From Octopus vulgaris (taxonomy: Eukaryota), in the NCBI GenBank assembly GCA_951406725.2, contig OX597815.1:39060001-39124000 (forward strand): 64,000 nt of DNA. The letters are read 5' to 3'. The notes beneath the pieces were generated by a model. It was not told the DNA's origin and made no database searches. It saw only the letters and a list, made by a program, of their open reading frames with translations. A program made the position numbers and the translations under genes. Positions 18,175-64,000 of the stretch are shown in pieces (within the stretch, counting starts at the first letter, position 1; each line of letters begins with the position of its first letter).

Positions 18175-18221
<47 letters not shown>

Positions 18222-18240
18222 GCGCACGTGATCACATTAA

Positions 18241-18438
18241 CCCATTATTCTGTCAAAAGTAAGGTTTATTTATTCTCATTGTTTTGAATTAATCTGCATT
18301 GCCTTGTAGCTTTTGATGAGGCAACTTAATTTTTAGAATGATATTGTAAGGTTGGTGTAAGAGGCCAGATCTGGCCAGTTCAAACATAATGCAGGTAGAG
18401 TATTTTGGCCAGATATGGCTTGTTTAAATGCTAAAGGG
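18241..18438. mobile_element. piggyBac-type MITE (second family)
   Basis: ttaa|ccc ... gctaaaggg|ttaa; homologous to 38120-38781 and to the ends of 41089-43100. Confidence 0.75.
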
Positions 18439-21007: not shown

Positions 21008-21150
21008 ATGGGGAATTATGTACATTATTTACATTTGACAGATATTTGTCCTCATCTTGTATGTTAATACAACATTTTGGCTGGTATACCCTCCAGCCTT
21101 CTTCAGTCTGATGAAGACTGGAGGGTATATCAAATAATGTAAATAATGGT
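21008..21150. mobile_element. Collapsed copy of the palindromic Penelope-like repeat
   Basis: ggaattatgtacattatttaca...ctccagccttc followed by inverted ctgatgaagactggagggtatatc; homologous to 29920-30385. Confidence 0.65.
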
Positions 21151-24055: not shown

Positions 24056-24103
24056 CACTGTCATCTTGCAGACGTCGGCATGGACATCTGCAAGATGACA
24101 GTG
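24056..24103. repeat. Short inverted repeat (21-bp arms, 6-nt loop)
   Basis: cactgtcatcttgcagacgtc-ggcatg-gacatctgcaagatgacagtg; one mismatch, which is a G-U pair on the minus strand. Confidence 0.9.
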
Positions 24104-29919: not shown

Positions 29920-30385
29920 TGTACATTATTTACAATGGACAGATAGGTGTCCTAACCTTGTCTGTTGTTATCACAACATTTTGGCTGATGTACTCTCCAG
30001 CCTTCATCAGGTGTTCTGGTGGAATTTCAAACCCAACCCTTTATTTGACTAATGGGGTACTCTGTTATCGTTCCTAAGGTTTCTGTTTTTGCTGATATTA
30101 TTTTTTTCTGTATATATTATTTCCCAAGTCCCTGCCTGGGATTGAATTCAGAATTTGAGGGTTAGTAGCCCATGCTATGCTTCAATCCCAGGCAGGGACT
30201 TGAGAAATAACATCAGCAAAATAGAATACTTTAGGAATGAGAACAGAGTACTCCATTAGTCAAATAACGGGCTGGGTTTGAAATTCCACCAGAACACCTG
30301 ATGAAGACTAGAAAGTACATCAACTAAAATGTGGCAACAACAAACAAGGTGAGGACACCTATCCATCCATTGTAAATAATGTACA
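29920..30385. mobile_element. Long palindromic Penelope-like terminal-repeat element with degenerate hammerhead cores
   Basis: Arms 29920-30146 and 30181-30385 are imperfect reverse complements around a 34-nt spacer; each arm carries CTGATGA followed by a stem-II-like segment. Confidence 0.75.
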
Positions 30386-33300
30386 ACAATATATATTTAA
30401 AATTCTAAATTTTAAATAATTGGAGACATAACAAATCTGTATAATGCAAAATTTCTTGATCTGGTTGTTTGGCATATAAGTCCTTCTTTCAGATGGCATA
30501 TACTTGGAAAAGGTGACTTATGATAGTTTAAAGTAATTAGAAACTTGGGTTACAGGATTTAAAAAATGAAGTAGTTTTGGCAATCATGTCTTCCCCAAAA
30601 GAGCAAAACAATCCATATGGAAACAATTCACATGGAAATGACAGGTTTGATTTCTAAAGATTTTTATTATCATATGATGATGTTAATAAAACTAATGAGT
30701 AAAGTTCTAAAAATAAGAAATTATTCATATATTCCTCATCTACTTCTAAATATAAATAAATTACAAATGCTAAAGCACCATATATTTGTGCATTTACTTT
30801 TCAGTCCTTAATTATTTCTGACCCACAATTCATAGAAAACAAGAATGAAAGTTTATCATCATCATTATTATTATTATTAGTATTATTAATATCCAACATC
30901 ATAGAGTCAGTCTGAGCCAATGAGGAAACATTCCCTCTCAGATGCCAAGTCAATATCTATCTTAATTTCTTGTATTCATATACAAACCTAGAGCTAGGTA
31001 ATATCACATTTAGATTCCTTCTTTAAAGAGAATACCTAACCAAAAATATCATGTATATTACGTAATTGAAATAAAAATCTGTAAAACTGTACAAGGGCAA
31101 CTGAAGAAAAGAGAGACTATGAAATAATCACAGAAACCCTTTTAACTATAAAAGGGAAAATAATCATTCAATTGATCAAAGATCCACCAACAAAATATTT
31201 ATAAAAGAAAATGCTAACTTGGAGAGTAATATAAATTCCTATTAAATATATATATATATCTTAACACATACACACACACAAACACACGAAACCCACACGT
31301 TTTAAAACTGTTAAACAATGCTTAAGTGTATAAGTTTCTTTTTGAACAAAGATACATATTCAACAGAGAAATCTAATCAACTCTTACGTCAATGTTTTGC
31401 AGAGTTAAATTTAAATTCTTATGTAATTATTCTCTGGTATCAGTTTACACAAGTTTATATATAAACAGCATTCTAAGAAACAGCTGAATATAGGGTATTA
31501 ATCTGAAGCATCTGAAATAAGGATAATAGTCCAATGATAAATAACCTTCGTGTGTCTAACTCATTCTTTAAATCCAGAAAGCTTTACGACATGTTTTAAA
31601 ATTAAATAAGGAAAACAAAAATTTTATATGAAAGTTAAAGCAATTACTTTTTTTTTACAACAGAATTCTTCATAAATCCTATTACATACAGTAAAGATGG
31701 TACAGACAACTGACTAATTCAATACAATAAACTATTACTTACCAGTATTATACAATGTCGCTTAGCTCTCAAATTCATAACCAGAGCCAGCAAAGAAATT
31801 TGCAAGAAATAGTAACCAAATGACACTCCATCATAAATGAAAAAACGCATCAGGCAATGTACTCTCAGGTATACTACGTCTCAGGAAGACAGGGAAGCAA
31901 GATAATATTAGCTAGGAGACCTTTTATCATAGGCATTCAAAAGCTAATCAAGACGAGAGTTAAACAACAACCAAATCATAAGAACATTATACAATAACTG
32001 CCGTGGTTTAATCATTTCCTCCAAAATTTTTCCACAAGACAGAAATCAGATAGGTTTTATATAGCCACAACACAAGAATACTTTCATGACTAACAACATA
32101 AGGATGAACCAATATAGATAAATGGCAGACTGAACTATTTTTCTTAAAAAACAGTCTAGTACATGTTTATATTGAGACTTAACTAAAACAACTCAGACAA
32201 ACTAGAAATAAATTTTGAAATTGGTGAATATGTCTTGAATATAAACAACCTGCATATTAATATATTTTAAACCAATGAGAAAGAAGAACAAATTACTACA
32301 TTAAGATTAGTGCATATCATTTAAGCTAGCTTTACCAAAAGATTTTATTTGCCCAAATGCTTTATGAATTTCAAAATGATTTTGGTTTCTCCATATGATT
32401 TAATAGTCTGCTCCATTACTTCTAGTTTACATTTTTACTTGCCAAGATGATTGAATTTGACTACTGAAAACAGAACAACTTAAACCCCACCCCACCCATG
32501 CAATAAGATGGAAATATTAAAGTATTGGAATATAAGTCAAGGACCATGGACTGAAGTTCTATCAGAGAGTACCAAGAATAATGACAAAGCAGAATTTCAG
32601 AGATGCCACAGCTAAATATTTCCTGTGATTTGATATTTTATGTGGTTGCACTCAACAAACAAGTTAGCAAATGCCACTGGATCACTGGCAAAGTTACTAA
32701 GATTAATATTGAATAAAATTCTGTCGACTAATGTGAAAGGTAACTTATTCTATAATCATACAGATAGTGAAATAGGCGCAATGGTTGATTAAATACATAA
32801 TCTACACCGACTACCTCCTCAAGAATTTGCATGATGCTATTAAGAGTTTTATCTTGATCGAAGGATTTAGCTCAAATACCATTTATTTGAAGAGAGCAAT
32901 AAGGACAATGTCAGTGTATCAACATTAGGAAAATTACTTCAGTGATTAATTGAAATCTAGAATTACAGAACAAAATGTAAAATACAATAAAGAGAGAGAG
33001 GGGGAGATAGAGAATGTGTGCATGTGTGTTTGTTTCAATATGAAATATGATTTGTGGATGACAGCAGATCAAGCGCTATGGGCAATTGGCAACACTAAAG
33101 AATTATGAGCAATGGTAGCTTCTCTGAAAAGAGGAGAATACTTCCATAAATATGAAAAAAATAGGTAGCACTCCAATCCAATAAGCCTGAGGGAAGAGTC
33201 CTACACTGAACTAATTCCGTTTTTAAATCTCCTGGAAAATGTTAGTTTGGTTTCTTGAACATGAGTAAAAGAAAAGAGAAAAAAAAAAATGAAAAATGCA

Positions 33301-34492
33301 AATTCTCTAACACTGGATTACATTCAACATGTTGAAGTCAATGTTATGTGATATAAATCTAATATACTAAAAGCATTAATTTTGATGAATCATTTGCTGA
33401 AAGGATAAAGCTTCATTTTCATTGCTTGCTAATGTATTCAATGTACACAAAGACGAAAATTTTCAATAAAGTGACGGAAACAATTCAGAAATAGATGAAA
33501 TTTGCACTATACATTAAGAAATAAACAAGAAAGATTGACTTGAAAGAAAAAAAGAAAATTTTAAAAATTGAAAAGAAAATATTAGAAAATTCTTAAAATA
33601 CAAAGTGACCTGAAAGGACAATAATAGTTATTCTAAATGTTTTGGTCTCAAATTATATGATGATGATGATGATGATTTCCAATAAGGAGTCCAATCCACA
33701 AATTCTGAGGTTGAGGGTGTGACTGATTAAATAAGCTACCATATTTGATGACATGAAAGACACACAGGCACATTAGATACACCCCAATTTTAGAAATGCA
33801 TATTCATGAAAAAAGCTTAGTGCATCAAAGCGTGTAATATTAGCTTATAGAAGGCCCAACTTCCTACATAGGGCCTTGGGTGATTATTTTTGAGACTTTC
33901 TTTTAGTATGTGTTGTGGTGGGGATAAGTACATCTTATGTTCACTGTTGTTTTGATTAAGCTCCACATGAATAAAAGGAAAAACCATCTAAGCTTTGAAT
34001 ACAAAGAACAAGGCTGGACATTAATGTTGTTCCTTCTTCCGAAAGATTGCCATTATTACTGTATACTGACAAATCACTTATTAGCATATATTACAGTATA
34101 GAAATGATTACAAGTTTGTCAGGGAAGTGTATATAACTGATAATTTCTGGCTAAAGTGTACTGGAAAGGAAAGTCAGTTTTGGTTGGATTTCATCTTGAA
34201 AGAAAAGGTCACTAAACGTTATGAGGAATTTAATACATCACAACTGTTTTGCCATCATCTTGGAGACAAAAAGAATTCTTCAACTGGCCATTTCACAGCC
34301 TTCTTAACGCAATAATTAATTTCAGCGTATAATAAATTGTTTACATGTCCATATTGATATGCACGCTGCACATTATGCAATTGTATATTCACAAACCATT
34401 GCAGATGAAGAAAGCTAGCTCATCAGATCAATGGAATATCAAATTGTGAGTGTATGTGTGTGTCTGTGAATGGATAGACAGATAACATAGTG

Positions 34493-34790
34493 AGGATGCA
34501 TGGCCTAATGGTAAGGGCGCTGTACTCACAATCGTGAGATTGTGGTTTCATTTTCTGGACTGGGTAGTGCATTGTGTTCTTGAGCAAAACACTATATCTC
34601 ATATTGCTCAGCAATCACTGTGAAACCTGACATGTGGTGCAATGTGCACCTGTTCAGGTAACGTTAATTTGAGAGGAGTGAGTGAGCTAATGTACAGCAC
34701 ATACATTTCATTAATATAAAGAAATTATTTGAGAAGGTCATTTAACAAAAACTGAATATTCATACAATGTATTTGACAGAAGTATCCCTC
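34493..34790 (+). mobile_element. Decayed tRNA-derived SINE (third family)
   Basis: A-box-like TGGCCTAATGG, tRNA-like head, then ttgtgttcttgagcaaaacact; a related motif occurs inverted at ~22990-23180. Confidence 0.55.
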
Positions 34791-37700
34791 ACATATAACA
34801 GGGTTTCTCAGTCTGGTACAAAGCCACAAATTTTGTGATACATGTGTGTTTACTTAATAAAGCTTAGCACTTGACTGGTATACTAACAATCCAAATGAGG
34901 AATCTCAAATAGTCCCTTAACCTGCTCCAAATAGCCTAATTTAATTCACATCAGCCCCCATCAGCTCTGAGAGAGAGAGAGAAAGAGAGACCATAGATTC
35001 AGTCTGAAAGATCAAAAATGGGATGGTTATGGTTGGAACGTCTGATCAGTAAAAATAAACCAGAACTTTAAAAAAAAAACTGAATTCTTGGCTTTTACTG
35101 AGTCCAGTTAGCTGAAAGTCAACCCCAGCAGGATTTTAACTCAAAATAACAAAAGCATTACAAGGAATTTTGTCAAGTTTTCCAAAATATCTATGACTCA
35201 AGAAAAAAATTTCTATCAAAAGTATACATTATGTTTAAAATTATATAGTTACAATCTATGGCAATATGGAGAAACAACCTTATTTTCCCCTCAGGTCAAA
35301 AGTAACAAAAACTGGATCGTAACATAAATTTATACCATTACTTAAAAGTGATATGTACAAAAAACTGTTTCATAAACTAGATATAAAATAGATAATTAAA
35401 CAAAAAAAATTTAAGTGGGGGTGGGTGGGGTTTCACTTTTGAGTAATGGCTAAAATGATGCTACACTACTGTGTTGAAGAAGTAACACAACAAAAAGACT
35501 GAAAGAAAGTATTTCATGATTGAATATATTTGGTTCTTGGTAAATTAACAGCATACAATTGATTTGCCACAATATTAGTACCACTTGCTGGTTTCATGTT
35601 CTTGCCCTAATGACATATGGCAAGTCTTTTATACGACTAAATTTTTACTAATTACCAGTTACTGAAAGGAGACAAACAACTGAATTGCAGAAAATGCATG
35701 CATAAAAGCTAGCAGAATCAAAAATAGTCCAACATATGGAACAGAAGGAAAATATCTGGTTCATTCCCTGCTGTTACTGACAATTAAAATATTTCATCTG
35801 TTTACTAACATGCTAACTATCAGATGTTACATTACATACTAATAGCATATAATAGAGTTGCAGGTTTCATGGCAATCAAGCAAGCTTTCAGGTGTTTCTT
35901 AGCAATACACCTATATATTATACAAGCCTAGCACACTTATGGTTCCCTCAAACTGAACAGATGACTTAAGGAGAAATAGTCTAAATCTTCCAATTTTTAT
36001 TGATGGGAAAATCAAATTGTGTCTTCTCCAAAAGCAAATTCAGTATTAGAAAAAAAAGACTGTAAAAATGTGAAGTGAGTTTTTAATTGTTGATTTCAGA
36101 AGGAATTATGCACTGCTGACGTATCTTTTTTTTTTATACAACACAGTTATTGCAATCTCAATGCTTGAGCAATTATAAAGTTAGTATTGGAAAAGTGAAA
36201 ATAAAATGATGAAGATATAGAATGATTAAGTAGGATAATCCATACAAATATATCTTAAAACTGTGTATAATAGCAGCTGATATTTTCAAAGTGGCCAATA
36301 ACATGAACAGGTAAATTACCAGTTGAATTAACAATGCAACTTTAATTTCATCATGAATAACACCCAACATAGATTTGAAAGAAAAAAAAAATTATGCAAT
36401 TAGAGCTCTCCAGAAACTAAGATGCTTTAACAATTTTAAAAATTGGGAAGCTGCATTAAAAATTTGAATTAAAATCTAGATTAAAATGTATTTATTTACA
36501 CATGGTAGCAGGTGAAACATTATAAAAAGAATTAATTTAAGTAATACTTTATACATTGTCCAAGGAAAGCTAATATATAAAATAAATAAATCTTTTCTTT
36601 TCTCTTTTTTTTTTTTGATGAACATATACAAAGTATCATTAACATTAATCTAGAAATGTTTTATTAATAATCAGGTATCATTTGTAATTTTCAAAACTGA
36701 AAAATTTTTCTTACTGAGATGTTTATCACTTGATGCACTATAAAATGCAGTGCCTAAAGCCTTCTGATGATATTTATTTAAGATTTAATAAAAAATCTGC
36801 CAAATTTGAAAGCAATTATTTTGAAGAGTGCCAGCAAGAAGTACAAATATTGGTGATGACTAGCAAAAAGTAAATCGCAGTGTGGAACTTATGAGTAATT
36901 AGTGGGAGAAGAAATTGAGGATAAATGAAATGAGATGACACAGCAGTAGAATTAGTAAGGGGTATACTATGGATAGATTGTGAATAAATGAGGAATCACA
37001 AGAAAACTTGGAAGGAGGCTCAGTTAGCCTGCAGGAGGTATCCTGTAAAAGAGAAAAAGTTTTAGTTAATGTTAATGGGTAGATACCATGAGAGAAATAA
37101 AATGAGTGTGAGGAAGGGGATTACAAGGAGGGTAGTAGTCACAATTAGAAAAGGAGGAAGATAGAAAACATGTGGAGGAGCAGTGTTGCAAATAACCTGC
37201 AAGGAAAGAGAAAAAAAAATGCCAAAATATATATATATTAAAAGAAATCAATGGGATACAAGGAGCTTCAGGATCATCAAAATTTGGTTAGAAGAGATGT
37301 CCATTTGTCAATAGCATTAAACACAAACACATACCAAAAAAAAAGAAGGAAAAAAATCAAAAAATACAATAAGAGTTGGACACACTAACTGAACCCTGGA
37401 AAACTTACCATTTTAACATTTTAGATTAAAACTCTAAAAATCCTTGTAAGATTGATTAACTGTAAACATAATATAACTCCCTTACAAAAATAAAAGATGA
37501 ATAACAGGAGTAAAAAATTTCCTTTGTAATATACCTTGCCTTATGGTACAAATTTTATCTCGAATCAAATGTTAATTTTTCTCATAATTGGACAGGAGCA
37601 ACACATTTGTAAAAATAAAATCAGAAGATAGTCTATATGATATGTTACTGCATGTAGAAATTATACAGCAGTTGTTGATATAACCTAAACTAAATTATTC

Positions 37701-38119
37701 AGCCTGTTGTGAAAACCATTTACTACAACCTTTGTAAATCAAACCAGTAAATTGTGTTACCAAGAATTTGTAATTATTCTAGGAGTGGACTGACCGGAAC
37801 AACAGACTTAGTTATTTCATTACAAAAGAAAAACCAGATTCACCTTTTAGTATTTTCTCTATTAACTAATGTTTCATGTTAAATTTATTGTATCACAATA
37901 CTAAAACATACTGAAGTGAATAATGGCTAAGCAACGTAGATGTTAGATTAACCATAATGGTTTCTAACACAAATCATTATCAAAGTCCACTGAAATTGTA
38001 CAGGGAGCTTGCAAATTACATCTACATAAAAATATACTGATAACAGGTAAGCTAATTTGCATATAACTGTTTGAAAGTCAGCAAGAATGAAATAATAATA
38101 AGTATATTTTTATGTTTAA

Positions 38120-38448
38120 CCCTTTAGCATTCAGATTATTCAAATGTAATGCTTATTTATTTACATTGTTTTTGAATGAATGCATTATCTTGTAATGTTG
38201 ATATTTCAATGATGTTTTTTTATATTATTATTTTACTTGCTTCAGTCATTTATTATTATTTTACTTGCTTCAGTCATGTAACCATGTTGGAGCACTGCCT
38301 TTAGATGAACAAATTGGCCCCAGGACTTATTCTTTGTAAGCCTAGTACTTATTGTAGCAATCTCTGATGTCAAAGCACTAAGTTACAGGGACGTAAACAC
38401 ACCAACATCGGTTGCCAAGCAATGGTGGTGGTGGTGGGGGGGGTACAG

Positions 38449-38501
<53 letters not shown>

Positions 38502-38781
38502 AGCTTCTTTCAGTTTTCATCTACCAAATCCACTCACAAGGCTTTGGTCAGCCCGAGGCTATAGTAGAAGACACTTTCCCAAGGTGCCACACAGTGGGAC
38601 TGAACCCAGAACCATGTGATTGGAAAGCAAGCTTCTTACCACACAGGCATGCCTGTGCCTATATGTGGTTATTTATTTTTAGAATGACATTGTAGGATAA
38701 GTGTGAGAGGCCAGATCTAGTTGGTTTGAACATAAAACATTAGTATTTGGACCAGATACAGTCAGTTTAACTGCTTAAAGG
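38120..38781. mobile_element. piggyBac-type MITE interrupted by a family A SINE (~38230-38661, minus strand)
   Basis: ttaa|ccctttagcattcagatt ... cttaaagg|ttaa; the two halves align to the 18241 MITE on either side of the SINE. Confidence 0.8.
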
Positions 38782-38887
38782 TTAAAACGAATATGGTTAA
38801 TAACTAGGAACCAAGTTATTTTAATGTCCCTCATTTGGCTGAGAACCTGGATTATATACTCAAAACTTGTTCTCAAACAATATTATA

Positions 38888-39410
38888 TTGGGTTGTCTGG
38901 GAAGTTCGAGCCGATTTTTAAAGGCAAGAACCAAATATGAACCACTTTGTTGCATGTGTCTCCATCTTTCTTTTAACCTGAAAATATCCTCTTCCCAGAA
39001 TTGAGGTGGTTTTATGGCAAAGAATTCATCAAGGTATCTTTTTACATCATCCAACGAATTAAAATTTTTACCATAAAGACTATTCTGCAGAGACCTGAAT
39101 AAGTGGAAATCCGAAGAAGCAATGTTGGTGAATATGGAGGGTGGGGTAACATCCCAGCCAAGCTGCAGCAATTTTTGTCTTATTTCCAAAGCATCAAGTG
39201 CCGAAAATGAACTTTCTTATCTTCCATATTAAAGGGTTACAGAATTAACACAAGTTATAGGAACATAAATCTTCTTCCACGAAAAAGATGGCTTAAACTG
39301 TACTCTAAATGGAGGTGTAGTCAAATCCTATTTTATGGACTCAACCATGTTCTAAAATAAGTCGAAATGTAAACTACTATAAATCGGCACACACTTTCTG
39401 GACAACCCAA
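38888..39410 (-). mobile_element. Internally deleted mariner with both TIRs and TA duplication
   Basis: ta|ttgggttgtctgggaagt...gccgattt and aaatcggc...actttctggacaacccaa|ta; ORF IRQKLLQLGWDV...SSDFHLFRSLQNSL...LKERW is a mariner C-terminus. Confidence 0.9.
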
Positions 39411-39498
39411 TACTTTAAAAAAAAAAAAAAAACTTTAGTACACTGAATTTTAAAACTGATATAAACAGCTTTTCCATATCAACATTGTGGTCAACAGT

Positions 39499-39770
39499 CC
39501 ACTTGAGAATGTGGGAATAAATTTAAATGCCAATAAACTAACAAACATTTCCATTTAAATTATTTAAGTTCGCAATACTTCTTTTCTGAGAGAGCACTGA
39601 AATATCATGACTTTCATAACAAGAAATATGACATGCTTACCACTTCAGAATATGGAAATGAATTTAAATGCCAATAAATTAACATTTCCATTTAATTTTA
39701 AGTTCTCAATACTTCTTTTCTGAGACAAATATTATGACTTCCATAACATGAAGCAAGCATGATATGTCTA
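39499..39770. repeat. Diverged tandem duplication, ~141-bp unit x2
   Basis: ccactt-agaat...atttaaatgccaataaa...caatacttcttttctgaga occurs from 39499 and again from 39640. Confidence 0.8.
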
Positions 39771-39888
39771 TCACATGTTGCTAATGAAGATATTAAAAAT
39801 TAGCCTGTCACTCCTTTCCTGCTACAAACATCATCAAGTTTTTCACAGTCAATTTTTGTCTGATTATTCCCTATGAATAAATGATTAA

Positions 39889-40112
39889 CCTTTTTAATAC
39901 CAACCTACCAAAGGCTGCCTGCCCATCACTGTATGATACAAACTTTCTGTTTCAAAGTGATCAAAGTAAAACCCTTCCATCCAAATTTCATGCTAATTTA
40001 TGTTTCAAACACCAGTTTAATAATGACTAATAAGTTATTTTGCCAAATTTTTCATTGTTTTCAAAATTAAATACAACAAAGTGTTATTATAACAAATATG
40101 GTAGCAAAAGGA
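39889..40112. mobile_element. piggyBac-type MITE (family of 17110-17330)
   Basis: TTAA on both sides; body is a diverged reverse complement of the 17110 element. Confidence 0.65.
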
Positions 40113-41088
40113 TTAAATCAATTTAAATCCAGTTGTGAGTCTGCCAAACTCAAATGATAATTAATCTGAAGGAAAATACAGAATAGTCTCATTCAATATC
40201 AATTCATGATTTTCATTCACCTGGCAGTTTGGCAAGAATAACCTGTCTATTGTTTAACATTTGACTATGGTCAGTAAAATGTTAAACACCTGTATTGCTC
40301 CATGAATTTGATCAGTCCTATAAATAGGCCTATAAATAATCTTGTTGCAGGTGTTTTATGTCAGTTTAGTTTTACATGGTATATTTCAACAGATCATATA
40401 TATATAAGATTGATATGTCTAGAGCTAATAAGCTGCTGAAGATGAACTTGAAAAGAAATCTGAATATGCTGAGTAAAATTGTAGTTCACAACTGGAAATT
40501 GTTGCAAAGCATTTGACTAGCTACCATCATGGGCTTAATTGAACGAAACAGATCTACAGCAAAATGTAATGGATTAGGTAAGGTCTGGTAACTTCCTAAT
40601 TCTAGAAGTGCCTGAACACATTTCACCTACTTCCTGAATTTATTTTCGCTGCACTGAAACTTATCTTTTACACACACATGTGGTTCAAATTTGTTATATA
40701 TTTACTTACAGAGCTATCACTTTCAAAGTTATAACTTATTTCTTTCAAATGCTTATATAATATAGTTAAAAATACTTTATTATTTATTTAGTAATTACTT
40801 TATATCATAATTTATGTATAAATTGAGCTTTATAATTTATGAGTAAATTATATAACCATACTGTACCTCAGTATTCTAATTTCAAATGTCAGTGGCAACT
40901 TTATTTCATCCCTTTATGGACAGACAATGATAGAGTAGCTATTTACTAGAGTAATTTGTCCTTTTGCAATTTTCTATTCAGTTTTATATTTTACTTTAAA
41001 TCATTTTGATGTGTTAGTAAAGCAGGAAACAACCTTGCCCGATATGATCTCTGACATGGGTATAAAATGCAAGATTATAATGGTTTAA

Positions 41089-43100
41089 CCCTTTAATGTT
41101 TAGACCAGCCAAAACTGGCCAAAAATTATTCCCCTTTATTCATTTGAACCAGCCAAATCCAGCCATATTTGATTCCTCTACAAAATCGCTAAAAAAGTAA
41201 ACAAATCACATTACTGAATTCTCAAAGTTTTCCCACCTTTATTCAAGGGAAAATATGGTGAAATTTTTGAGACTACTTGGGGAGGGGGGCTCCAATGTTT
41301 GAAGAGAAGTGTATATCTTTGTTTTTAATGACATGGTGTCAGCAGGTAGCAATTCCAACTTCAAAGGTTTTACTCTTGATGATGTACAAAATATAAATGA
41401 AAACTGATTTGTCTTCAGATGAATCACATTGACATTTACTCTTTTACTTGTTTCAGTCATTTGACTGCGGCCATGCTGGAGCACCGCCTTCATAAATAAT
41501 TTCCTTACAATTAAATATACAGGATTTGAAAAAAAAATTTTTTTAAATAACTTAATTTGATGAGTGATAAAATACTATCTAATCAACAAATATAAATTTC
41601 AATATTTCCAATGGATTTAGTAAAATCGCCCAACTCACTGAACTACAATTTATGAATTTTTATTGTACAAGGAAGATTTTGATAATGAAAGTGATGAAAA
41701 TGATATTGAAAACATTATGGCAACATGGTTGAAGATACTACATCAACCACAATTCCCGATTTCACAGTAAAGACTAGTCCACAATACAGTCTACCTCCCG
41801 ATGCTCAACCATTGGACTATTTTTAATTTTATCGAAAAGTTTTTTTGAAACTGTCACGGAGGAAATAAATCTGCTCAATGTATAATTTCTATCCATGGAA
41901 GACCCGATCCACTATGGTAATCAACTGATACTGCTGAAATGCAAGTTTTTTTTTTTTACTATAAACATTATGTTTGGTATCAAGCAGCTTCCTCAACTGT
42001 GGAACTACTGGAATCCTCATACACGGTATGGTGAACCATACATCTCCAGCGTTATGTCTAACTATAGTTAATTCATATATTTATTATGTAAAAAGCCACA
42101 AGGTACCTCTGCTATCAAAGGACTATGACCATTTAAAATTTTGAGTTGACATTGCATCGCGGTTAAGTGAAGGCTTTTCTTCCAGAAAACACAGAACTGG
42201 GAGAAAAGCAAAATTAACTGAGGTGGATGCCAACAGAGAAAATATTGACTTCCATAAAGTGGAAAAAACAAATGGAAGGAAAAAAATTTGCAGACTGTGC
42301 TCACAGCAAAAAAGAAAAACTACGAAAGGATATCAGGTCGAGACCTCGTATATATGTTTGTTTTGCACAGTGCCCTTGTGTAAAGGGTATTTTGGACAGT
42401 TTCACGATAGAAATATGGTATAACTATATTTTGTTGTTTGATAGTAATACTATCATATATTCCTTTCATTTCATTACAAATAATAAGTGAAAGTAAGAAA
42501 TACGTATTAATTTTCAGTATGTTACACATCTGTATTCACCTTTGCTTCACCTGTTAATGACCTTTTTTTATTAGATGCATTCTGTTATGTAAATGTATTC
42601 ATTAAATTGTATAAGAGTACATAGCCAATGGTATATTGACTAGTAAAAGAGTTTTGTACTTTATTTTCATTGAAAATGTTTGAATGAAATATAGAGAAAG
42701 AAAAAAAATCTTGTACTGATTATACTTGTATTTTAAATAATGTACCACATCTTGAAAAGTGACAAAATTGTTGGCAGTTGATAACTGGAATAATTTTAGT
42801 AACAAATCAAACAGGTAAAATGCATTAAGAATTTCAATTTTAGTATTTAACTATAATGTTATTACTTTTACACCTGTTTTACTTGCCCATAAATGTCATA
42901 TTTAATCAGCAAAATCAGCGAAAATTACATAACTATAATCCACTAGTATATAAGCACCCACTGACAAAATTTAAAATCTGTATGTAAAAAAAAATTAAAG
43001 TCACAAGCAAATATTGTGGACACCCCACTTGAACCTGAATAATTCAAAATAACAAACAAATAAGCATTACATTTGACAGATTAATCTGAACATTAGAGGG
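41089..43100 (+). mobile_element. Internally deleted piggyBac element with TIRs, TTAA duplication and transposase remnants
   Basis: ttaa|ccctttaatgtttaga ... tctgaacattagaggg|ttaa (14/16 match). Remnants: LPPDAQPLDYF (~41791), IMFGIKQLPQLWNYW (~41967) and a C-terminal Cys-rich domain CRLC...ETSYICLFCTVPLC (42223-42423). No DDD catalytic core is visible. Confidence 0.88.
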
Positions 43101-44469
43101 TTAAACTCTTCATTACACATCAGTTACCTGGGACAAGTTATAACTTCTGGTTATGCCATCTTAAATATTTGCTTTGTGTATAATAATCACCCTTAATTTC
43201 TACGTTTAAAAATCTCTAGGCAAAAAGAGCATATTATACACAATTAAATATGTTCAGTAGCAATAGTTGTGCTCAATGAAATGGAAGAAATACTCAGTAT
43301 ATACAGAGTTATGTGCCTACTATGAACACAATGCAATTGTTAGCTGGAGGAAAGTTATTGATTAACAAGCCAGCATCCTATTGACTCCAAAAGTTACACT
43401 TATGGTTTCATTTGGTGCAGGTTAAGTGAAGTAAATAACCCTCTGGATAGGATACCAGCTTATCACAGATAATCATTCTTGTAACTTCTATGGAAACAAA
43501 CTACAATTTATGTATTCCTACTATTTGTTTTTACAATGCTGAGTTGTTCCTGTTTAGAGTTAAATAGACAGGGACATTAGAGAGTTAAATCACTTGGATA
43601 CCAACATAACAGAATTGATGAAATTATATAATTTGTTGCCCACTCAGCTGAGCTTCTTGTATTCTACTGACTGCCATTTACTCTCTTTATATTTTACGTA
43701 ACAACCAACTGATTGTAACAGCCACAATAAATAACTAACAATAACAGAATTAATGGTATTATAGTAATTAACATAATAGTACAAAGTAGATAGTTAACAT
43801 AACACATTCAAATACCTATGTAACACGGTAACAGAGTCGTAAATATTGTTTGATATTTCCTATTCTAAATTTCTGACAAGAACAATAAGAGTATCTATAT
43901 ATGTCTGAAGTGGGGAAATAACATATGCATTTGAAAAACTATCTGAAATATATCCAAACAATGTATGTTACAACAGGGTTTATTTGTCTTGGTGTACTAT
44001 AAAATTTAGGTAGAGGGTAAATAAGGCAAATGTGGTAATTCTGTTGAAAGATTTCTAAGGTGAAAGCATAATGCCATTTACATTCATCAAATACAATCAT
44101 GTTAAAGATGTGAACCTTCTGCAATTCATAACAAAGAAATAAAAGAGGAGTGGAACTATATAGAACCAACGTGACATAAATAGTTACTTACATTCATTTG
44201 GCATTGAGAGATATAGAAAAACAATGAGTTACATAATGCTACTATGTTAAAAGAGATCAGCTGTAATGATATTTAGTAAAGTGCAATCACTGCTTATAAG
44301 CTGTAAAGGTTTTGAAAGATATCAATTTCAAAATGCTAGTAAGATAAATTCCAATCAGCTAAGAAAGAATTAATGTTGTATTTTTCTAATATATTTTTCA
44401 ATTGCCCAAATGATTTAGGCAAATATACTGCTCTAAACATGAGAAATAACTGTGATTAAAAACTTTAAA

Positions 44470-45900
44470 AATACAATTTGTCTGCTCCAATTACATGTAA
44501 TTGATAGCAGGTTTAAATGGATATGGGACAGGGCGTAAGGAAGGATCACAAGTATTGAAATTTCGTGAAACCAGTGACCTGTCTATTTGCAACACCTGCC
44601 TATCAAGTAAAGACACATGCCATATATACTTTACAATAACCAGGAAATGAGATAAAGATTGTTATGGACGCTAAGCCTTTCCAAGGTGAAGAACATACCA
44701 CTCAACACAGTAATTATCAATGACTTCAGAGAAAGAGATAGACTGACCAGAACAACAAAAAAATTTGGAAAAGGAAGATATGGAAGGTGAACAAGCTCTT
44801 GACCAGATGTGGATCCAGAGATGTACTAGCTGATGTGTATGACAGAAGGAAAAAGGAAATAGAGACTTATAAAGAACAACCTGAAGTTTCTACAATATAA
44901 CCTAATGCATAATTATTGCCAGACTGAATGAAGGTGATATGGTTGTGGAACAGTAGATAGAACCATAATAGCTAATAGACAGGCCTGGAAAGACTGAAAC
45001 AAAAAAGGGGCAGCAGAGAACAATACGAGGTGATTAAGAAAAAGCTAGATATCAGGTGTACTTAATAAAGAGGAAGAATCAGAAAACAAAAATTCTGTAC
45101 ATATTCTGTAATATTAGAGGGATAAAGTGTTCCAAATTGTAAGGCAGAGAAATATACAAAACTGAAATGGAGATAAGTGTGAAAAGAATGATAGCAGCAC
45201 ATTTGCCATCAACAATGCCTAAAAGCAATATAGAAAATATTAAAGGTAACTGAATGAGCAGAATGCTTGAGGAAGTGAAGCACCTCAGGTAAACCCAACA
45301 GAAGGATCAGTCATTGGAATTGACAGCTGAATGATCAAAAATGAGATAAAAGATACAGAGGGAAAAAAGGCAGTTGGATTATCAAGGATAGTCACTGGGA
45401 TGCTTATATATTTGGTAAAGTAGGTCCATATCCTAGTCACTTGCTCAGTTAATCAGGCAACACAAGATGTCATACCCAACAATTTACACAGTTTATCGTT
45501 GTAAACTGCTACAAAGGTAAAAGTGAAGTTCTAGAACGAAACCGCTACAGAGGCATCAAAATGTTGGACAAGGTTATGAAAGTTACAGAGAGTTATAGCA
45601 CAACTGATTAATAAAGAGAATTAGCATAGCTAATACACTACTCAGGGATGTGCCATGACAGGGTGCTACCAATGCTCTCTTCCTAATGAAAGATTTACAA
45701 GTGCTTAACTAAGGATACATCACTCTGCCTAGACTTAGTCAATCTGGAAAGAGTTGTTCACAGGGTATCATTTCTATAGTCCAGAAATCACTAAAAAAAT
45801 TAAATGTAGAAGAATGGGTTTTGAAACTTGCACAAGTCATGTACAGAGGTGACATTAACAATCAATGCAGTGAGGTTAACAGTTACTTTGAAGGCATAAA
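44470..45900 (+). mobile_element. Decayed RTE-like LINE
   Basis: YRGIKMLDKVMKVTES at ~45547 and eroded downstream RT motifs; many stops. Boundaries approximate. Confidence 0.65.
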
Positions 45901-46655
45901 CCTAAGTAGAGGTACATTAGGAAACAGCAAAATGTATTATCCTTAGACTGAAGAGATTGTCCAAATGTTTGCAACAGAGCACTCTCCACCAAGGGCGCCA
46001 AAGAGCAAGGTGTTGTCACCAACCAATGTTACAAATTAGCCTGTAGCTACCAAAAAGAGTATGGCATGGCATTTTATTGTGTCACTGAATATTCAGATCA
46101 GTGTCGTAAAAATACGGTTAGAACATTTGGTTGCATGGAGAAAAATGAATACTCGGTGTAATCAATTTTTTACATATCTGATTTTTGCTTCTTAATCTAT
46201 CAATTGTAGCTAATAATGACCAAGATATAAAGAGGGTTGCAGTTCTTTAGTCCTTTGATGAAATTTGTACAAAAATAACCATGCCCATTTTTTGTTAAGA
46301 CTGTAAAAGTGATTTGAGGAAAATTTGGCAGATGTTGCTAGAAGATAGAGTAAAAATATAGAGGCTCTCACAGCTCATAAAATAGGGGTCTGAATATTTT
46401 GTAGATGGCAATATAGAATGCAAGTGAATTAATGCTGAATTTCAAGTCTTATAGAGACATCTAAGTACAACAGTTGAAACATTTGAAATCAACTTTATTA
46501 TTATTAATATTAATGTACCAAACACTAGTAAGCTGTAAAAGATTGGCTTTAAAGTTATTGTAGTTTTCACAAGCATCTCACCCTTGATAGGACGCACAAT
46601 AATGTTGATATCAAATATTACAAACCATGTGATTAAATACTTCAAGTGAGTACTC

Positions 46656-47424
46656 ATATATATACACACATATGCATACATACATACATACATACACACA
46701 TATGCATACATACATACATACATACATATACATACATACATACATATATACATACAATACATACACATACATATATACATACACATACATACATACATAT
46801 ATATATATATATAAATACACACATGCATACATACATATATATATATACATACACACATGCATATATATATATATACATACACACATGCATATATATATAC
46901 ATACACACAGGCATACATACATACATATATACATACACACAGGTATACATACATACATATATATACATACACACATACATACATACATACATATACATAC
47001 ACACATGCATACATACATACATACACACATGCATACATACATACATACATATATATATATATACATACATAAATATAATACATATATATATATACACACA
47101 TGCATACATACATATAATACATATACATACATATACATACATATATATACACACACACACATACATATACACAGACATATACATATATAGATACACACAG
47201 ACATATACATACATACACACATACATATACACAGACATATACATATATATATAGATACACACAGACATATACATACATATATCATCATCGTCGTTTAACG
47301 TCCGTTCTCCATGCTAGCATGGGTTGGACGGTTCGACCGGGGTTCTGGGAAGCCAGAAGGCTGCACCAGGCTCCAGTCTAAATTTGGCAATGTTTCTACA
47401 GCTGGATGCCCTTCCTAACGCCTT

Positions 47425-47480
<56 letters not shown>

Positions 47481-47483
47481 GAC

Positions 47484-47524
<41 letters not shown>

Positions 47525-47529
47525 GACAT

Positions 47530-47572
<43 letters not shown>

Positions 47573-47577
47573 GACAT

Positions 47578-47620
<43 letters not shown>

Positions 47621-47625
47621 GACAT

Positions 47626-47680
<55 letters not shown>

Positions 47681-47728
47681 TATACATACATACATATAAT
47701 ATATATATATATATATATACACAGACAT

Positions 47729-47765
<37 letters not shown>

Positions 47766-47787
47766 CATACACAGACATATACATACA

Positions 47788-47828
<41 letters not shown>

Positions 47829-47951
47829 CATATACATACATACATATATATATATATATACACACACAGACATATACATACATACATATATATATACACA
47901 CACAGACATATACATACATATATATATATATATATATACACACACAGACAT

Positions 47952-47994
<43 letters not shown>

Positions 47995-48319
47995 GAAATA
48001 TACATACATATATATACACACACATATACATACATATATATACACACACATATACATACATATATATATATACACACACATATACATACATATATATATA
48101 TACACACACATATACATACATATATATATATACACACAGACATATACATACATATATATATACACACATATACATATATATATACACACATATACATACA
48201 TATATACACACATATACATACATATATATATATATATACACAGACATACATACACACAGACATACATACATACATATATATATACATATATATGTACACA
48301 TATGTGTAGATATATATAT

Positions 48320-48366
<47 letters not shown>

Positions 48367-48391
48367 TATATATATATATATATATACATAT

Positions 48392-48422
<31 letters not shown>
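46656..48422. repeat. Compound (TA)n/(CA)n/(CATA)n microsatellite array, ~1.77 kb
   Basis: Directly visible; it produces all the Y/I/H/T/V/C/M-rich pseudo-ORFs. Interrupted at 47281-47427. Confidence 0.98.
47281..47427 (-). mobile_element. 3' end of an RTE-related retroposon with (GAT)n tail, embedded in the microsatellite
   Basis: atcatcatcgtcgtttaacgtccg...catgctagcatgggttggacg; related ends at ~28140 and ~60400. Confidence 0.65.
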
Positions 48423-48424
48423 TG

Positions 48425-48990
48425 CATTGGCAAGCTCGCAGCAACAAGGCAATGTATCACACACAATGTTTCTAGTGGCACGGATACTTTGAAAGTGGAA
48501 GAACACTCTTGAAAGACGATGAGTGATCTGGAAGATAAGCAGTCCAGAAGACCTGCCACGAGTGTCAATCCCGGAAATGTGGAGAAAATTCATCAGCTTG
48601 TGCATGAGGATTTGCGGAGGACAATCGACAATGTTTTGAAGTATTTCAGAGAGGACATTTGGTGAAATTGACCAGATCTGTGGCGTGCAAATAATTGGAT
48701 TCTTCACAACGATGCACCCTGTCACTAAGCTCTCCTCACTCGTGAGATTTTCATCAAAAACAACATAGTATTGATTCCACATCCGCAGACTTCCATCTCT
48801 TCCCTAAAATGCAGCCCAAAAGTCACTATTTTAACACTGTTGTTGAGATCAAGAGTGAACGGCAGAAGGTCCACGATTCACTTACAGAAAACAACTTACA
48901 GGCCAGATTTCAAAAGTGGCAGGAACATTGGAACTAGTGTAATGTTGTGCAAGGTGACTATTTCAAAGGAGATGGTGTTAAAATTCCTTT
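48425..48990 (+). mobile_element. Decayed, internally deleted mariner
   Basis: [34 protein letters not shown] (mariner N-terminal/HTH region) followed by remnants similar to 15851-16295. Confidence 0.75.
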
Positions 48991-49571
48991 AAGTGGATTA
49001 CATTCAGTGACTTTCCATGTCATAGTATAATTCAAACAGGTCCGCATAGTGGCACATACCAGGTACAACAGGACATGCTAGGATAAACAGGAAATCAAAG
49101 CCCTAATACAGTGATGTTGTATACACCAAATGTGAAGTATCCCATGCCAAAGTTTGTCTAATAGTACCAAACATAAGCCTAAGTACAACACAGGTACAAA
49201 CCTGATTATACGAAAATAACATAGCTACATGACTGAGATGTTTTGGTGTTTATTACACCTAAAGTAGTTTTACAACATGCTCAGTCATCATCATGAGTAC
49301 TATGTACTATTGCCTGACATTCATTAACCCTAGGCTAGGTTCATCTGTCCTTTTGACAGGCCTTGTTTTGTGCTAAGTTTTAAATAGTCCTTCTCATCAA
49401 GTAAGCCTAGTAGAATTACCAGTTTAGTCACTGACAACACAATCATTTAACAGGTTATATCACACACACACACACACACACACACAATTTTAGTATCCAA
49501 GTAGATTTTCTTCAGCTAGATGACCTTTCTGTTACCAACTCTCACCTGTTTCCAAACAAAGAAATATTCTG

Positions 49572-49618
49572 CATGGTCAGACATGCCCTTGCATTCTGCA
49601 AGGGCATGTCTGACCATG
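49572..49618. repeat. Perfect inverted repeat (22-bp arms, 3-nt loop)
   Basis: catggtcagacatgcccttgca-ttc-tgcaagggcatgtctgaccatg. Confidence 0.95.
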
Positions 49619-50579
49619 GGGACAAATGACATGGCTTGTATGACAGTAACAATCATTTACAACTATCATACCATGTCAAGGCAAGAACACACACAAACAC
49701 ACAGTCTTCTTTCCGTTTCCATTTACCAAAGCCACTCACAAGGTTAGTCAACCCAGCACTTGCCCAACGTGGCACATAGTGAGATTGAACCCTGAAGCAT
49801 ATGATTGAGAAGCAAATTTCTTAACCACACAGTTACACCTGTGCCTATTTCTCTCTCCCTTTTTGTATGTGTGTGTGTGTGTGTGTGTCTGTATGTATGT
49901 GTGTGTGTTTTCAAACTAACACAGAGACTAACATAGAAGAAAGTAAAAGAAAGGAGTAATTAATATGATGCTCAATGAAAGATAAAGAAAATTGAAGTGT
50001 CTTAGATGCTTCAAGACCAAGTTTTTTTTTTCTTCAGAAAATTAAATGAAAAAAGAGTAAAACAAATAAGAATACAAATATGTATTAGTCTGTCACAAAA
50101 TATCTATAAAAACAATAATTTCAACCAAATATTAGCATAAAATATTGATAAATCAAAGCCTCTAAAAATTATTTTGTTATCTATTGTTGTTATCTATTGC
50201 ATGTATTTTCCGAACAGTATTATTGTTGTTATCTATTGCATGTATTTTCCAAACAGTATTAAGATAATATCCACTTAACACATTGCAGGTTTGCATTTCA
50301 CTTTACAGTCAGCTTTAACTTATTACATGTAACATAAATATTTAATAATATCAAATGTCTTCTACACTTTTCTTCCATTCAGAGGAATTAAACATAAAAA
50401 GAAGCAGGTAAAGTAGTAAACAGAAGAAATATTTTAATGAAGATACCAATGAAAACTTATATACAATAACCATTATGTAAAAGTTAAAGGTTTCAGTACA
50501 TAAATCAGCTGGTATATATATGCAGCAAAAAAAAAAAAAAAAAAAAAAAAGTCAGCCAATCATAAGAACAGTTACATAC

Positions 50580-50783
50580 CAGTGATCCTAAAGAGCCTGG
50601 GTAAATACCACCAGTGGATCCACTTAAACTTGAAAGACTGCTTGTTGAACTAGACCGAGAGGAATAACCGGAACCAAGTGAAGAACCAAGATAGTTATTT
50701 CCATTTTTCGCAAGAATGGAGGATCCAGAATTAGCCCCTAAAGATGATGTCGGCAATCCATAGCGATAGGATCCATATGACAT
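50580..50783 (-). CDS. Putative alternative first coding exon of a short MYPT isoform (68 codons, Ser/Gly-rich)
   Basis: MSYGSYRYGLPTSSLGANSGSSILAKNGNNYLGSSLGSGYSSRSSSTSSLSSLSGSTGGIYPGSLGSL ends at CTG|gtatgt (phase 0), compatible with the phase-0 acceptor at 17771. In-frame TAA at 50790-50792 just upstream of the ATG. Higher GC than flanks and not repeat-like. Confidence 0.75.
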
Positions 50784-50960
50784 AATGAATTATATTATTA
50801 TTATTAGATAGATAGATAGAGACTGCAGTGAGATAACTGTTTTCATAAAATAAATTATCAGTTATGGTAAAGTTGTTGTGGCTGTGTCCAATATGTTACT
50901 GCTGCTTGTTTGAGCTCTGTGTCTGGGCCAAAGTTAGAATAACGCCCACAGCAGCAGCAG

Positions 50961-51261
50961 GGGAATTTCCAGTAGCTGCTTAAGATATAATAGTTATTCT
51001 ATCAGTTCAGACAAATAAGAAGCTAAGAACAAGATAGAGTAGCAGGCAATCAAGGAGATATTAGAGAGATAGTAATATAAACATTGAAAAAGAAAATTTA
51101 GAAGGAAGTTCTTTAAAGTTTATAATTTTGGAAAGGGGAGTGAGAAGCAAAATTCATGACTGCTGTTTCAGGCAACACATATGCTTCCTGCTGAAAAGGC
51201 TCAGCTTGTCTAACACACCTTCCTTTCCAAGGATTAATCTATTTTTAGTATTCTGCAACTG
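50961..51261 (-). promoter_or_regulatory. Candidate internal promoter for the short isoform (MEF2 site, E-boxes, TATA, kB-like site)
   Basis: CTATTTTTAG (MEF2 consensus) 51239-51248; E-boxes CAACTG 51256-51261 and CATATG 51178-51183; minus-strand TATAAA 51119-51124; GGGAATTTCC 50961-50970. All lie within ~480 bp upstream of the ATG at 50783. Confidence 0.4.
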
Positions 51262-52432
51262 GTGAGTGAGTGAGAGAGAAAAGAAAGGAAAGGGGTGGGG
51301 GGAAAAATAAAAACAGAAAATAACCACTTAAAAAAGTAAACAAAATATTTATCATGGTAAATTGTTAGTTCTACTACTACAATCAGTGAAAACAATCAGT
51401 AGAAGTTATGAATTGGTCTTCCTATTTCTGGCCACAGAACACATGGGCAAGTGTGAGCAGACAAGGCTAAATTTGAAGAGAATTTTTCAAAACGAAGAAA
51501 TAAGCTACACTGCCAACAGCACACAAACACTGACATTAGTGATGATTCACTTTGTACTCAACAAGTAGTCCAACATGAATTGTTTTACTCCATTACTAGA
51601 TTAAACTTGTCATACTTAAAAACAGGCAGAAATTATTTAAGTACTTTCTTCCCTTACCCACACTAAATTTAGTTTCTGTTCAACTGATGCATTAAATGAG
51701 ATAACTAAATGCAGTATTTTCAATTAATTGCTAAAATAAAAAAATAAAAAAAACAACAACAACAAATGGAAGCCACACTTTCAGGAATGAAGCAAAAGGC
51801 TTGATAAGAATAACAGGCTGATACAATATTTGGAGCTTTGATTCATTTTAAATAAATACCTTGATTCATTTTAAATAAATACTTTGATAACATTATCTGA
51901 GTGTATGTGTGTGAATACATATCATTACTGCTTCAACATCTATTTTTCCACACTTGCAAGAGTCAGACAAGAGTATGCTAGTGCAGAGTTTACTATGGCT
52001 AGATGCTCAACCTGTTGCCAACCTCTACTTGTTTCCAAGTGAGGTAATAATTTCTCAGCTCATCAAAACAACAAACAATACAGACATGATTATAAAGTGA
52101 ACAGGAAACAAAACACCATTTGAACAAGCCAATTGTTTACAAAAATTACACATGTTAAGATGCCTAAATATACTTTCACAGTGGACTGCAAGAAAATGAC
52201 ACCATAGGTGAAGTCACTGTTTACAATCACATGTATAGACAAGGGAAATACCCTCACACAAACACTGAAAATAATCTTTCAGTTGCCATCTACCAAATGC
52301 ACTCACAAGAATTTGGTCGGACTAAGACTATATCAGAAGGCACTTGCTTAATGTGCCCAAAAACATGGTTGAGAGGGAAACACAAATATGCCTCTCGCCA
52401 AAACATATACACAAACATATATAAATGCACAC

Positions 52433-61238: not shown

Positions 61239-61295
61239 TGTGCTGTCATCACTTTCATTCTCTTCCTTTGATACAGAATTGGACTCCTCATCACT
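61239..61295 (-). CDS. PPP1R12A: Internal coding exon of MYPT (acidic linker, 57 nt, phase 0-0)
   Basis: SDEESNSVSKEENESDDST; acceptor ttctcctttttgcag, donor ACA|gtaagt; in frame with neighbouring exons. An acidic stretch also follows the RRSTGV motif in MYPT1. Confidence 0.85.
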
Positions 61296-62532: not shown

Positions 62533-62636
62533 CTTTAGATTGTAATTAATAACTCCTGTTGATCTTCTTTCCCGCTTGGCTCGGCGGGCTTTCAAGGCGG
62601 ACGATTCTCTTCTCTCTGAATCTTTTTCTTTATCAG
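62533..62636 (-). CDS. PPP1R12A: Internal coding exon of myosin phosphatase targeting subunit (MYPT1/Mbs family), carrying the ROCK phosphorylation motif
   Basis: Hand translation (2 nt + 34 codons): DKEKDSERRESSALKARRAKRERRSTGVINYNLK. RRSTGV matches the vertebrate MYPT1 Ser852/Thr853 motif. Acceptor ttttattttattcctgaag (AG at 62637-62638), donor AAG|gtatgt, phase 0 out. Upstream exons (ankyrin repeats, RVxF) lie outside the window. Symbol denotes the family, not strict 1:1 orthology. Confidence 0.9.
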
Positions 62637-64000
62637 CTTCAGGAATAAAATAAAATACCTATGAATATCATAGAATCATATGGTATGTTCAGGTTAATTT
62701 AAAACCTAAAGCTACACTGTACTGCTTGAGATTTTCACATAAAGAGTACACCAAGTAATTCCATCTGGATTAGCCAAGAAAGTCCAAACAAAAATTTAAG
62801 ATGAGCAACCTGGACAATAGAGAACACAAAACTATATGGGCTTGATTACCACTGCAGCATTGTCCAGCACTATGGAAGATGAAAAATGAAATTTATGTTG
62901 ATGATACATCAATTTATAACGAAGTTATGTGTACACATGTCAGTATGTGACATGATGTATACATATGCACATATATAGAAACTATATATGGTGTTTATAG
63001 GCAACAGCATTCACAAAATTTTCAACACCCACAATGTCATTTAACATTATTCTCAAGTGAAGAACCATCCTATCCGATCAGACTTTGGTTATAAGGGAGA
63101 GAGAGTGTCCACTCAAAAACAATAAATGAGCAGTTTCATTAGGTCTAAATTCATTCTGATTTAAATTACATATTTTACAACTTTGAGCAAATAATATTCC
63201 ATAAACAGTTTGGTCAGTTCAGAAGTAAACACACTCATTATGGAATTCATAAGAAATCATCTACTTATTGTAGTTTAATCATATAATTTTTGTCAGAAGA
63301 CAAAATATAGTCAGGAAAAAAAAGATCTGGGATGATAAATACAAAGAGGGGAAACGAGGAAACAGTAGTAGTAGGGGGGCTCGTAAATGAAGAAGGTTTA
63401 GGTTGGGTGTAATTAAGTTGGCAAATTGAGGAAAGCAAAGAACACAGCACATCCATGAGCTACATATTCTTCCGTCTCTTCTTTTGCTACAACAAATGCT
63501 GTAGGGAGATAGGATGTTTACCTATTAGGAAGATGACTTCACTTAGGACACTTTATGTTGGTATGTGGAGATTAGTCATTTAGAAAAATACAATCACACA
63601 AATAGCAGAATTTGTTAATCCTTGGTAACAAGGTGTCTCTTTACTAAAAATCGTGAAATAAATCATGTAGAAAGTAAATAAATAAAAATACAAAAAGTGC
63701 AAAAGAAGAAACAAATGCAATCTTTGGCAAACCTTGTAATAATATCTGATAGAAGAAAAGAGAAGAAATACCATTCAATTCATGCAAGCATTTCTGTGAA
63801 ATAACAAATCATAACAAAAATAAGCTACTGCTATGGATAAATAACAGATCACCATACACAAAATAAAGTTAATATACAAATTACTATCAATAAAGAGTCA
63901 AGTTGGCAGTGTTACTAGTGTTGATAAAATGCCTGGTTTCATCTCTTCTGGTTTATTACATTAAGTTCAAATCCTACTCATCTACTTCGCCTTACAATCC

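Follow-up and report, generated by a model that had tools for sequence, protein, structure and literature searches.

Vertebrate myosin phosphatase contains a third subunit, M20, whose role is still largely unknown (PMC13755552, section 12) and which arises from an internal start (PMC13755552, PMC4552530), while a 2013 paper states that no M20 has been identified in Drosophila (PMC3723691). The locus described here raises the question of whether the MYPT gene of an octopus makes an equivalent small subunit from a start of its own. The window, that is the whole stretch of 64,000 nucleotides analysed (Octopus vulgaris contig OX597815.1, positions 39,060,001 to 39,124,000 of the forward strand), contains the 3' portion of a MYPT (PPP1R12) gene on the minus strand; the long-form exons of this gene map up to ~197 kb upstream in window terms. 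A first-pass annotation, made from the letters alone, had proposed that a short frame within a large intron of this gene is an alternative first exon. We show that this octopus exon exists, that it is spliced and that it is conserved within the Lophotrochozoa, and we discuss what its product would do.

A probable alternative first exon within a MYPT intron

The coding part of the exon lies on the minus strand at positions 50580..50783. Its 204 nt form 68 codons with an ATG first (50783), an in-frame TAA is present at 50792-50790, three codons 5' of this ATG, and a phase-0 donor (CTG/GTATGT) directly follows the frame. When the coordinates were re-derived, frame, upstream stop and donor were as first annotated. 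The peptide is of low complexity (34% Ser, 19% Gly, 9% Tyr, no Asp or Glu), starts MSYGSYRYG and carries a conserved core around GSGYSSRSSSTSSL; the GC content of the exon is 0.43 vs 0.33 for the surrounding intron. In the genome search the peptide has a single match and no second, processed copy, and the 68 residues alone give no Pfam match. The bare pattern of an ATG, an open frame of at least 40 codons and a phase-0 GT is also found elsewhere in the intron (e.g. at 53475, 48782 and 20296, among the matches listed), and because such patterns recur by chance within the intron, the frame pattern is weak on its own. The exon is called real because of the junction contigs and the cross-phylum conservation described below.

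Other features of the window are of a different kind. A long (CA/TA)-type simple repeat at ~46600-48470 produces, on both strands, spurious frames that run for hundreds of codons, and two transposon remnants are found on the plus strand, one with a Mos1-type HTH match just under cut-off (1384-2227) and one with a DDE_Tnp_1-like zinc finger (42145-42420). Broken frames at ~9672-9929, 15309-15800 and 38863-39216 look mobile-element-like by eye and have no Pfam match.

The exon is joined to the first shared C-terminal exon

Of 24 sequencing runs, 20 contain the stretch, and four (X1, X3, X5 and X8) were examined. No run is recorded as RNA, 14 of the 20 being presumed to be RNA, and all consist of assembled contigs, from which start, strand and level cannot be fixed. 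In two of the four runs, X1 and X8, which come from two studies, a contig leaves the genome exactly at 50580 with a loose end of 30 letters that is identical to window positions 17742-17771, the start of the predicted acceptor exon, and unique in the window. The junction from 50580 to 17771 that had been predicted from the letters alone is therefore present in contigs, and the first of the MYPT C-terminal exons is joined to a probable first exon of the short form's own. The far side of the junction, with its 30 letters, is one short of the 31-letter bridging rule; a remainder of this length is what a 31-mer graph yields at an exon shared by two paths, and we take it to be in line with another upstream partner of that exon. 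The X3 contig also stops at 50580, the X5 contig passes the donor unspliced into the intron, and depth is zero at 50000-50538 in all four runs. That the joint bridges 32.8 kb and has GT/AG ends points to spliced RNA; the short transcript would lose the intron 17772..50579 (minus strand).

In one X1 contig the 5' leader (50784..50993, minus strand) runs on into the coding part without a break; this contig spans 50991-50580 with no differences and then enters the junction, so that leader, ATG and junction are on one piece. An upstream X5 contig ends at 50993 and the X1 contig at 50991, neither with a loose end there, and the X3 and X8 contigs end earlier, at 50886 and 50866. The contig ends of two studies give a weak hint that transcription starts near 50992. 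There are also longer or pre-mRNA forms, as seen from the unspliced X5 contig and from a separate 350-nt contig of X1 at 51349-51698 (depth 4.6), which could come from pre-mRNA, from DNA or from a farther start.

The leader holds an in-frame upstream ORF of 18 codons (50790..50846, minus strand; ATG 50846) that spans a short CTAT/TAA repeat. Its stop is the TAA located three codons before the main ATG, so that it ends 6 nt before it, and it could cut translation from ATG 50783. In X8 a 4-nt insertion is found at 50804, inside the repeat; this difference in repeat length would shift the upstream ORF to overlap the main ATG and is possibly a natural variant of translation efficiency. The upstream ORF brings in the reading that the transcript is untranslated, or else low-level noise. 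Contig depths are low (3-14), no short record occurs among the retrieved Octopus proteins, and the 68-aa query has no match at E<=10 among 1042 candidate proteins of 120-2000 aa, all of which would suit such a reading. Against it, two studies give the identical junction, the coding part is free of differences in all four runs while the leader carries an indel, and the core of the peptide is conserved across phyla. We consider noise or lack of translation very improbable, and that the short isoform exists is in our opinion highly probable.

Farther upstream, two putative sites, both unstranded, resemble the MEF2 consensus: CTAAAAATAG at 51239..51248, ~250 nt upstream of the contig ends, and a second one at 51663..51672. 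The intron contains five strict MEF2-like sites, two of them at most 700 nt upstream of the contig ends, a clustering with a post hoc P of ~0.0025 for the strict pattern and ~0.07 for a looser one. No TATA, CArG, CA[GC]CTG or TEAD motif is present in 50950-51500.

Composition of the predicted short product

The short form shares its last four exons, all on the minus strand, with the long MYPT1/Mbs/MEL-11 type of subunit. The first exon common to both forms (17613..17771) has 53 codons, is Ser-rich and ends DYKK; it is followed by two coiled-coil exons, one of 49 codons (16809..16955), which covers PF15898 positions 5-42 and alone stays below the curated cut-off, and one of 17 codons (13916..13966), and by the leucine-zipper last exon A, of 28 codons and a TAG stop (4212..4298). 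All downstream exons have AG/GT ends, and the sum announced at the outset, 68+53+49+17+28 = 215 aa, stands. The predicted product thus consists of a low-complexity head, a coiled coil and a leucine zipper, and its mass as computed from the exons (23.4-23.5 kDa) agrees with that of a ~20-kDa subunit.

The long form differs by the RVNF motif, the ankyrin repeats and the RRSTQ and RRSTG sites upstream of the shared part. In the long protein P0001 RVNF is at residue 38, RRSTQ at 555 and RRSTG at 687, and the shared part begins at 718. The short form is without the RVxF PP1 site, the ankyrins and the RRSTQ and RRSTG inhibitory sites, in keeping with the initial claim that ankyrins, PP1-binding and RRSTGV sites are missing, since all of them are upstream of residue 718. 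The exon with the RRSTG site, absent from the short form, is at 62533..62637 (minus strand, 5' border approximate), and the long-form acidic exon at 61239..61295 (minus strand) is the last one ahead of the intron in which the alternative start lies.

A second leucine-zipper last exon, B, lies at G000:C2:39050840-39050929, ~9 kb beyond the window start, and its use also gives 215 aa. The genome has at least two PF15898 matches, both in last exons of this MYPT locus, and no other locus was matched. The two zipper exons are duplicates of each other (..ENRALARV.. in exon A, ..ENGALIRV.. in exon B), and the duplication looks old, as judged from arthropod and oyster records, in which both zipper types occur (28 and 226 of 293 proteins). 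A third ending, without a zipper (P0007), uses an exon ~21 kb beyond the window start.

Over the coiled-coil exon, identity is 100% with proteins of Octopus vulgaris and O. sinensis and 94% with those of O. bimaculoides. No short MYPT record was found for Octopus, the 23 Octopus proteins retrieved with this exon (of 37 candidates) all having 863-1083 aa, and the nine Octopus members of the two largest clusters are likewise of 863-1083 aa. The short form is missed by the octopus gene models examined.

Conservation of the exon

The core test compares the exon core, ungapped, with the best 16-mer of each protein, against two shuffle nulls of 2000 each. A gapped alignment of the whole peptide with shuffles had separated relatives poorly owing to the low complexity, a duck record ranking first, and was abandoned. 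In the core test, an identity of 14/16 was found in three of 126 proteins, from Capitella (P0046), Magallana (P0028) and Mytilus (P0024), the next best value being 11, and this identity was reached by 0 of 2000 shuffles in either null. Matches of 10-11/16 in decapods were dropped, being located in a shared exon and not in a first exon. The search for short proteins with a MYPT tail returned 103 proteins, and the profile search yielded 133 further cluster representatives, none of which exceeds 11/16 on the core. The core of the exon is thus conserved in bivalves and an annelid, well beyond the cephalopods.

In Mytilus P0024, Magallana P0028 and P0164 the segment is internal to a longer gene model and not at its start, and P0024 and P0028 therefore show conservation, not first-exon use. 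P0164 has a start, MSYGSHRYG, that is identical to the octopus one at eight of nine residues and is placed after RRSTG and the acidic stretch, together with a weak core match (equalled by 48 of 2000 shuffles). In the paired records of mussel and oyster, the segment joins the tail where the acidic stretch of the long form does. A start motif, MS[YH]x(1-6)RY[GS], occurs in six of 293 proteins, including a spider record (P0050), P0164 and P0210; the motif was defined on these very sequences, so the shuffle counts of 5-62 in 20000 are optimistic.

The internal position of the segment in these three models suggests another use of it, as an alternative internal exon of the long transcript, which would be a poison exon with a stop in octopus and an in-frame insert in bivalves. 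Acceptor-like AGs at ~51021 and 51251-51257 and the coverage of X1 farther upstream would fit such an exon. However, no loose end or joint is found 5' of the contigs ending at 50991 and 50993, there is no AG between the upstream stop and the ATG, and the only internal acceptor-like site (50649) is out of frame. Moreover, a Met with the start motif heads the segment in every case, the Capitella and spider records beginning there, and a poison exon would not preserve its peptide across phyla. An internal exon is for these reasons improbable, and we retain the reading of the segment as a first exon.

Several other records bear variants of this organization. P0210 and P0287 are short MYPT tails with a Ser-rich MSY/MSF head, P0210 being without the usual DYKKLYE stretch. 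P0103, P0105 and P0107 comprise one long record and two short ones, the divergence beginning behind the RRSTG region and the short heads being of ~8 residues, and from their sequences they appear to be another lineage with a short form. Two alternative N-termini at the switch point, one long and Ser/Tyr/Gly-rich and one of 8-10 aa, seem to be present in the oyster-like P0145 vs P0027/P0028 and in Cherax P0084 vs P0154, which have one locus tag. By analogy, the octopus intron may conceal a second tiny first exon.

Comparison with vertebrate M20

The octopus short form resembles M20/M21 and hHS-M21 in that it is short, is encoded by a MYPT gene and has an N-terminus of its own. Like M20, it has a coiled coil and a leucine zipper (PF15898), in a tail that shares 47-53% identity with the tails of five short PPP1R12B proteins from vertebrates, and is devoid of RVxF, ankyrins and inhibitory threonines; its predicted 215 aa compare with mostly 183-190 aa in vertebrate short records. 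In contrast with M20, which is made from the paralogue PPP1R12B, its tail comes from the sole PF15898 locus found and is identical to that of its long partner, and the two alternative leucine-zipper last exons are another difference from the M20 system. The first exons are also dissimilar, 68 aa rich in Ser, Gly and Tyr in octopus vs 34 aa, basic and Pro-rich, in vertebrates: the octopus peptide gave no alignment with the first exon of vertebrate P0032, and all vertebrate records stay at or below 10/16 on the core. The octopus form is consequently not a strict member of the M20 class, as its gene context is different and its N-terminus unrelated. Nevertheless, the junction, the cross-phylum core and the missing PP1, ankyrin and RRxT sites support the proposal that octopus makes an equivalent small subunit, and it is likely that invertebrates make an M20-like small subunit.

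The first-pass annotation had left open whether this equivalence is ancestral or convergent. Within Lophotrochozoa the shared sequence favours ancestry. For Bilateria as a whole, ancestry is suggested by the shared position of the switch, the first exons being unalignable. In bird, snake, mussel, oyster, shrimp and one further pair, the alternative N-terminus stands in for all of the long form as far as the acidic stretch behind the last RRxTG, this stretch included. In bird and snake, the PPP1R12B records, long and short, part just after the RRGTG site and the acidic stretch, as the forms of octopus, bivalves and shrimp do; the comparison is one of protein records. Ancestry across Bilateria is the simpler reading. 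Convergence on the same switch position is possible, since a switch just here is the natural way to drop all regulatory sites. Fish PPP1R12B reportedly (Dippold and Fisher, in 2014) encodes the small subunit only, which would fit the division of an older two-product gene.

Short forms in arthropods

Similar ankyrin-less forms already exist in arthropod annotations. Two arthropod clusters of the Atlas carry PF15898 alone, under the names 'Myosin binding subunit, isoform S' and 'PPP1R12A isoform X7', and other annotated ankyrin-less forms are Phlebotomus X3, Anopheles 'isoform f', Cherax OTU49_005432 and Penaeus X3. Among 126 Met-started short proteins without RRxT sites, 14 start MS/MA-[YFH] and are Ser/Tyr/Gly-rich (11 from arthropods, one from an annelid and two others). 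Like the octopus form, those of arthropods have PF15898 only, many of them starting MS[YF] and being Ser/Tyr/Gly-rich, and the shrimp short form has the same switch point as octopus. Their heads differ in that they are mostly longer (~155-195 aa, in beetle, butterfly and crayfish records) or reduced to 8 aa (decapods) and are without the lophotrochozoan core (at most 11/16), the octopus-type start motif being found, among named arthropods, in the spider record only. The arthropod forms are automatic annotations, and some of the short records could be split gene models. We found no paper that treats them as M20, and none that deals with M20 in an invertebrate or with a short MYPT form in a cephalopod, in a search that covered few subscription papers.

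Taken together, these comparisons could be accounted for by an internal start that predates the protostome-deuterostome split. One ancestral MYPT gene would have made large and small subunits, the small one would have passed to PPP1R12B, an old MSY..RYG exon would persist in molluscs, annelids and a spider, and the short Mbs isoforms of insects would be the 'missing' invertebrate M20. We regard the odds for and against this scenario as even.

A model for the action of the short subunit

We propose, with a probability of about 0.62, that a transcript from an internal promoter encodes a 215-aa subunit which pairs with the coiled coil of the long subunit and damps myosin phosphatase as M20 does. 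Once the isoform is granted, an M20-like mechanism is in itself probable. Transcription would start at the internal promoter near 50992, translation would begin at ATG 50783 past the upstream ORF, and the first exon would be joined to all later tail exons in one molecule. The last ~100 residues, the same in both forms, are predicted to form a parallel coiled-coil dimer, in which a short chain would replace the second long chain and leave one PP1 per complex instead of two. By analogy with M20 (PMC13755552), less PP1 would mean less self-dephosphorylation of the inhibitory threonines and more phosphorylation of myosin light chains, and the Ser/Gly/Tyr head may be a disordered, phosphorylatable targeting tail. 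Expression in muscle is a guess from this analogy and the two MEF2-like sites.

The pairing was modelled with the last 103 residues, which gave an in-register coiled coil with a score of 0.44, the best of three controls scoring 0.00; at least 98% of contacts agree between runs and pLDDT is at least 84. Of 30 solved pairs, 21 attain this score mark, as against 0 of 23 single chains; on eukaryotes 17 of 29 pairs do, but only one of the seven pairs without an older solved relative, so the pass of our dimer may reflect its likeness to known coiled coils. A sequence search of the PDB with P0026 returned no match at E<=0.01. In vertebrates, MYPT1 dimerises via this C-terminal region, and M20 blocks the dimer and reduces self-dephosphorylation (PMC13755552). 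Counting against an M20-like mechanism, the Ca-sensitising effect of M20 maps to its N-terminal half (PMC13755552), which is the part not common to the octopus form.

The same tail admits a different function, in which the short protein has its main role away from the phosphatase: it would form a homodimeric coiled coil, bind PKG, ROCK, myosin or microtubules, and have its head as the working part. The conservation of the head core from octopus to annelid would be in line with this, as would the facts that the tail is a PRKG1-interacting domain modelled as a self-dimer and that vertebrate M20 binds microtubules and has a Ca-sensitising N-terminal half (PMC13755552). On the other hand, as the tail is identical to that of the long form, mixed dimers would be hard to avoid where both are co-expressed, and vertebrate M20 co-purifies in the holoenzyme (PMC13755552). 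We consider a role mainly outside the phosphatase unlikely, and prefer the model of a subunit that pairs with the long form.

Consequences for myosin phosphatase in invertebrates

Under this model, the small subunit would damp the enzyme that relaxes muscle, and a damper with a tail identical to that of its target would be a simple way of setting tone in particular muscles, such as those of the cephalopod arm, mantle, hearts and vessels. If the short Mbs isoforms of insects are the 'missing' M20, as in the scenario of an early internal start, the long-unclear function of M20 would become testable in the fly by deleting one exon. Should an equivalent be made in molluscs, annelids and arthropods from their single MYPT gene, the three-part enzyme would be an ancient feature of animals rather than something added in vertebrates, and it would be open to study by clean exon deletion in invertebrates.
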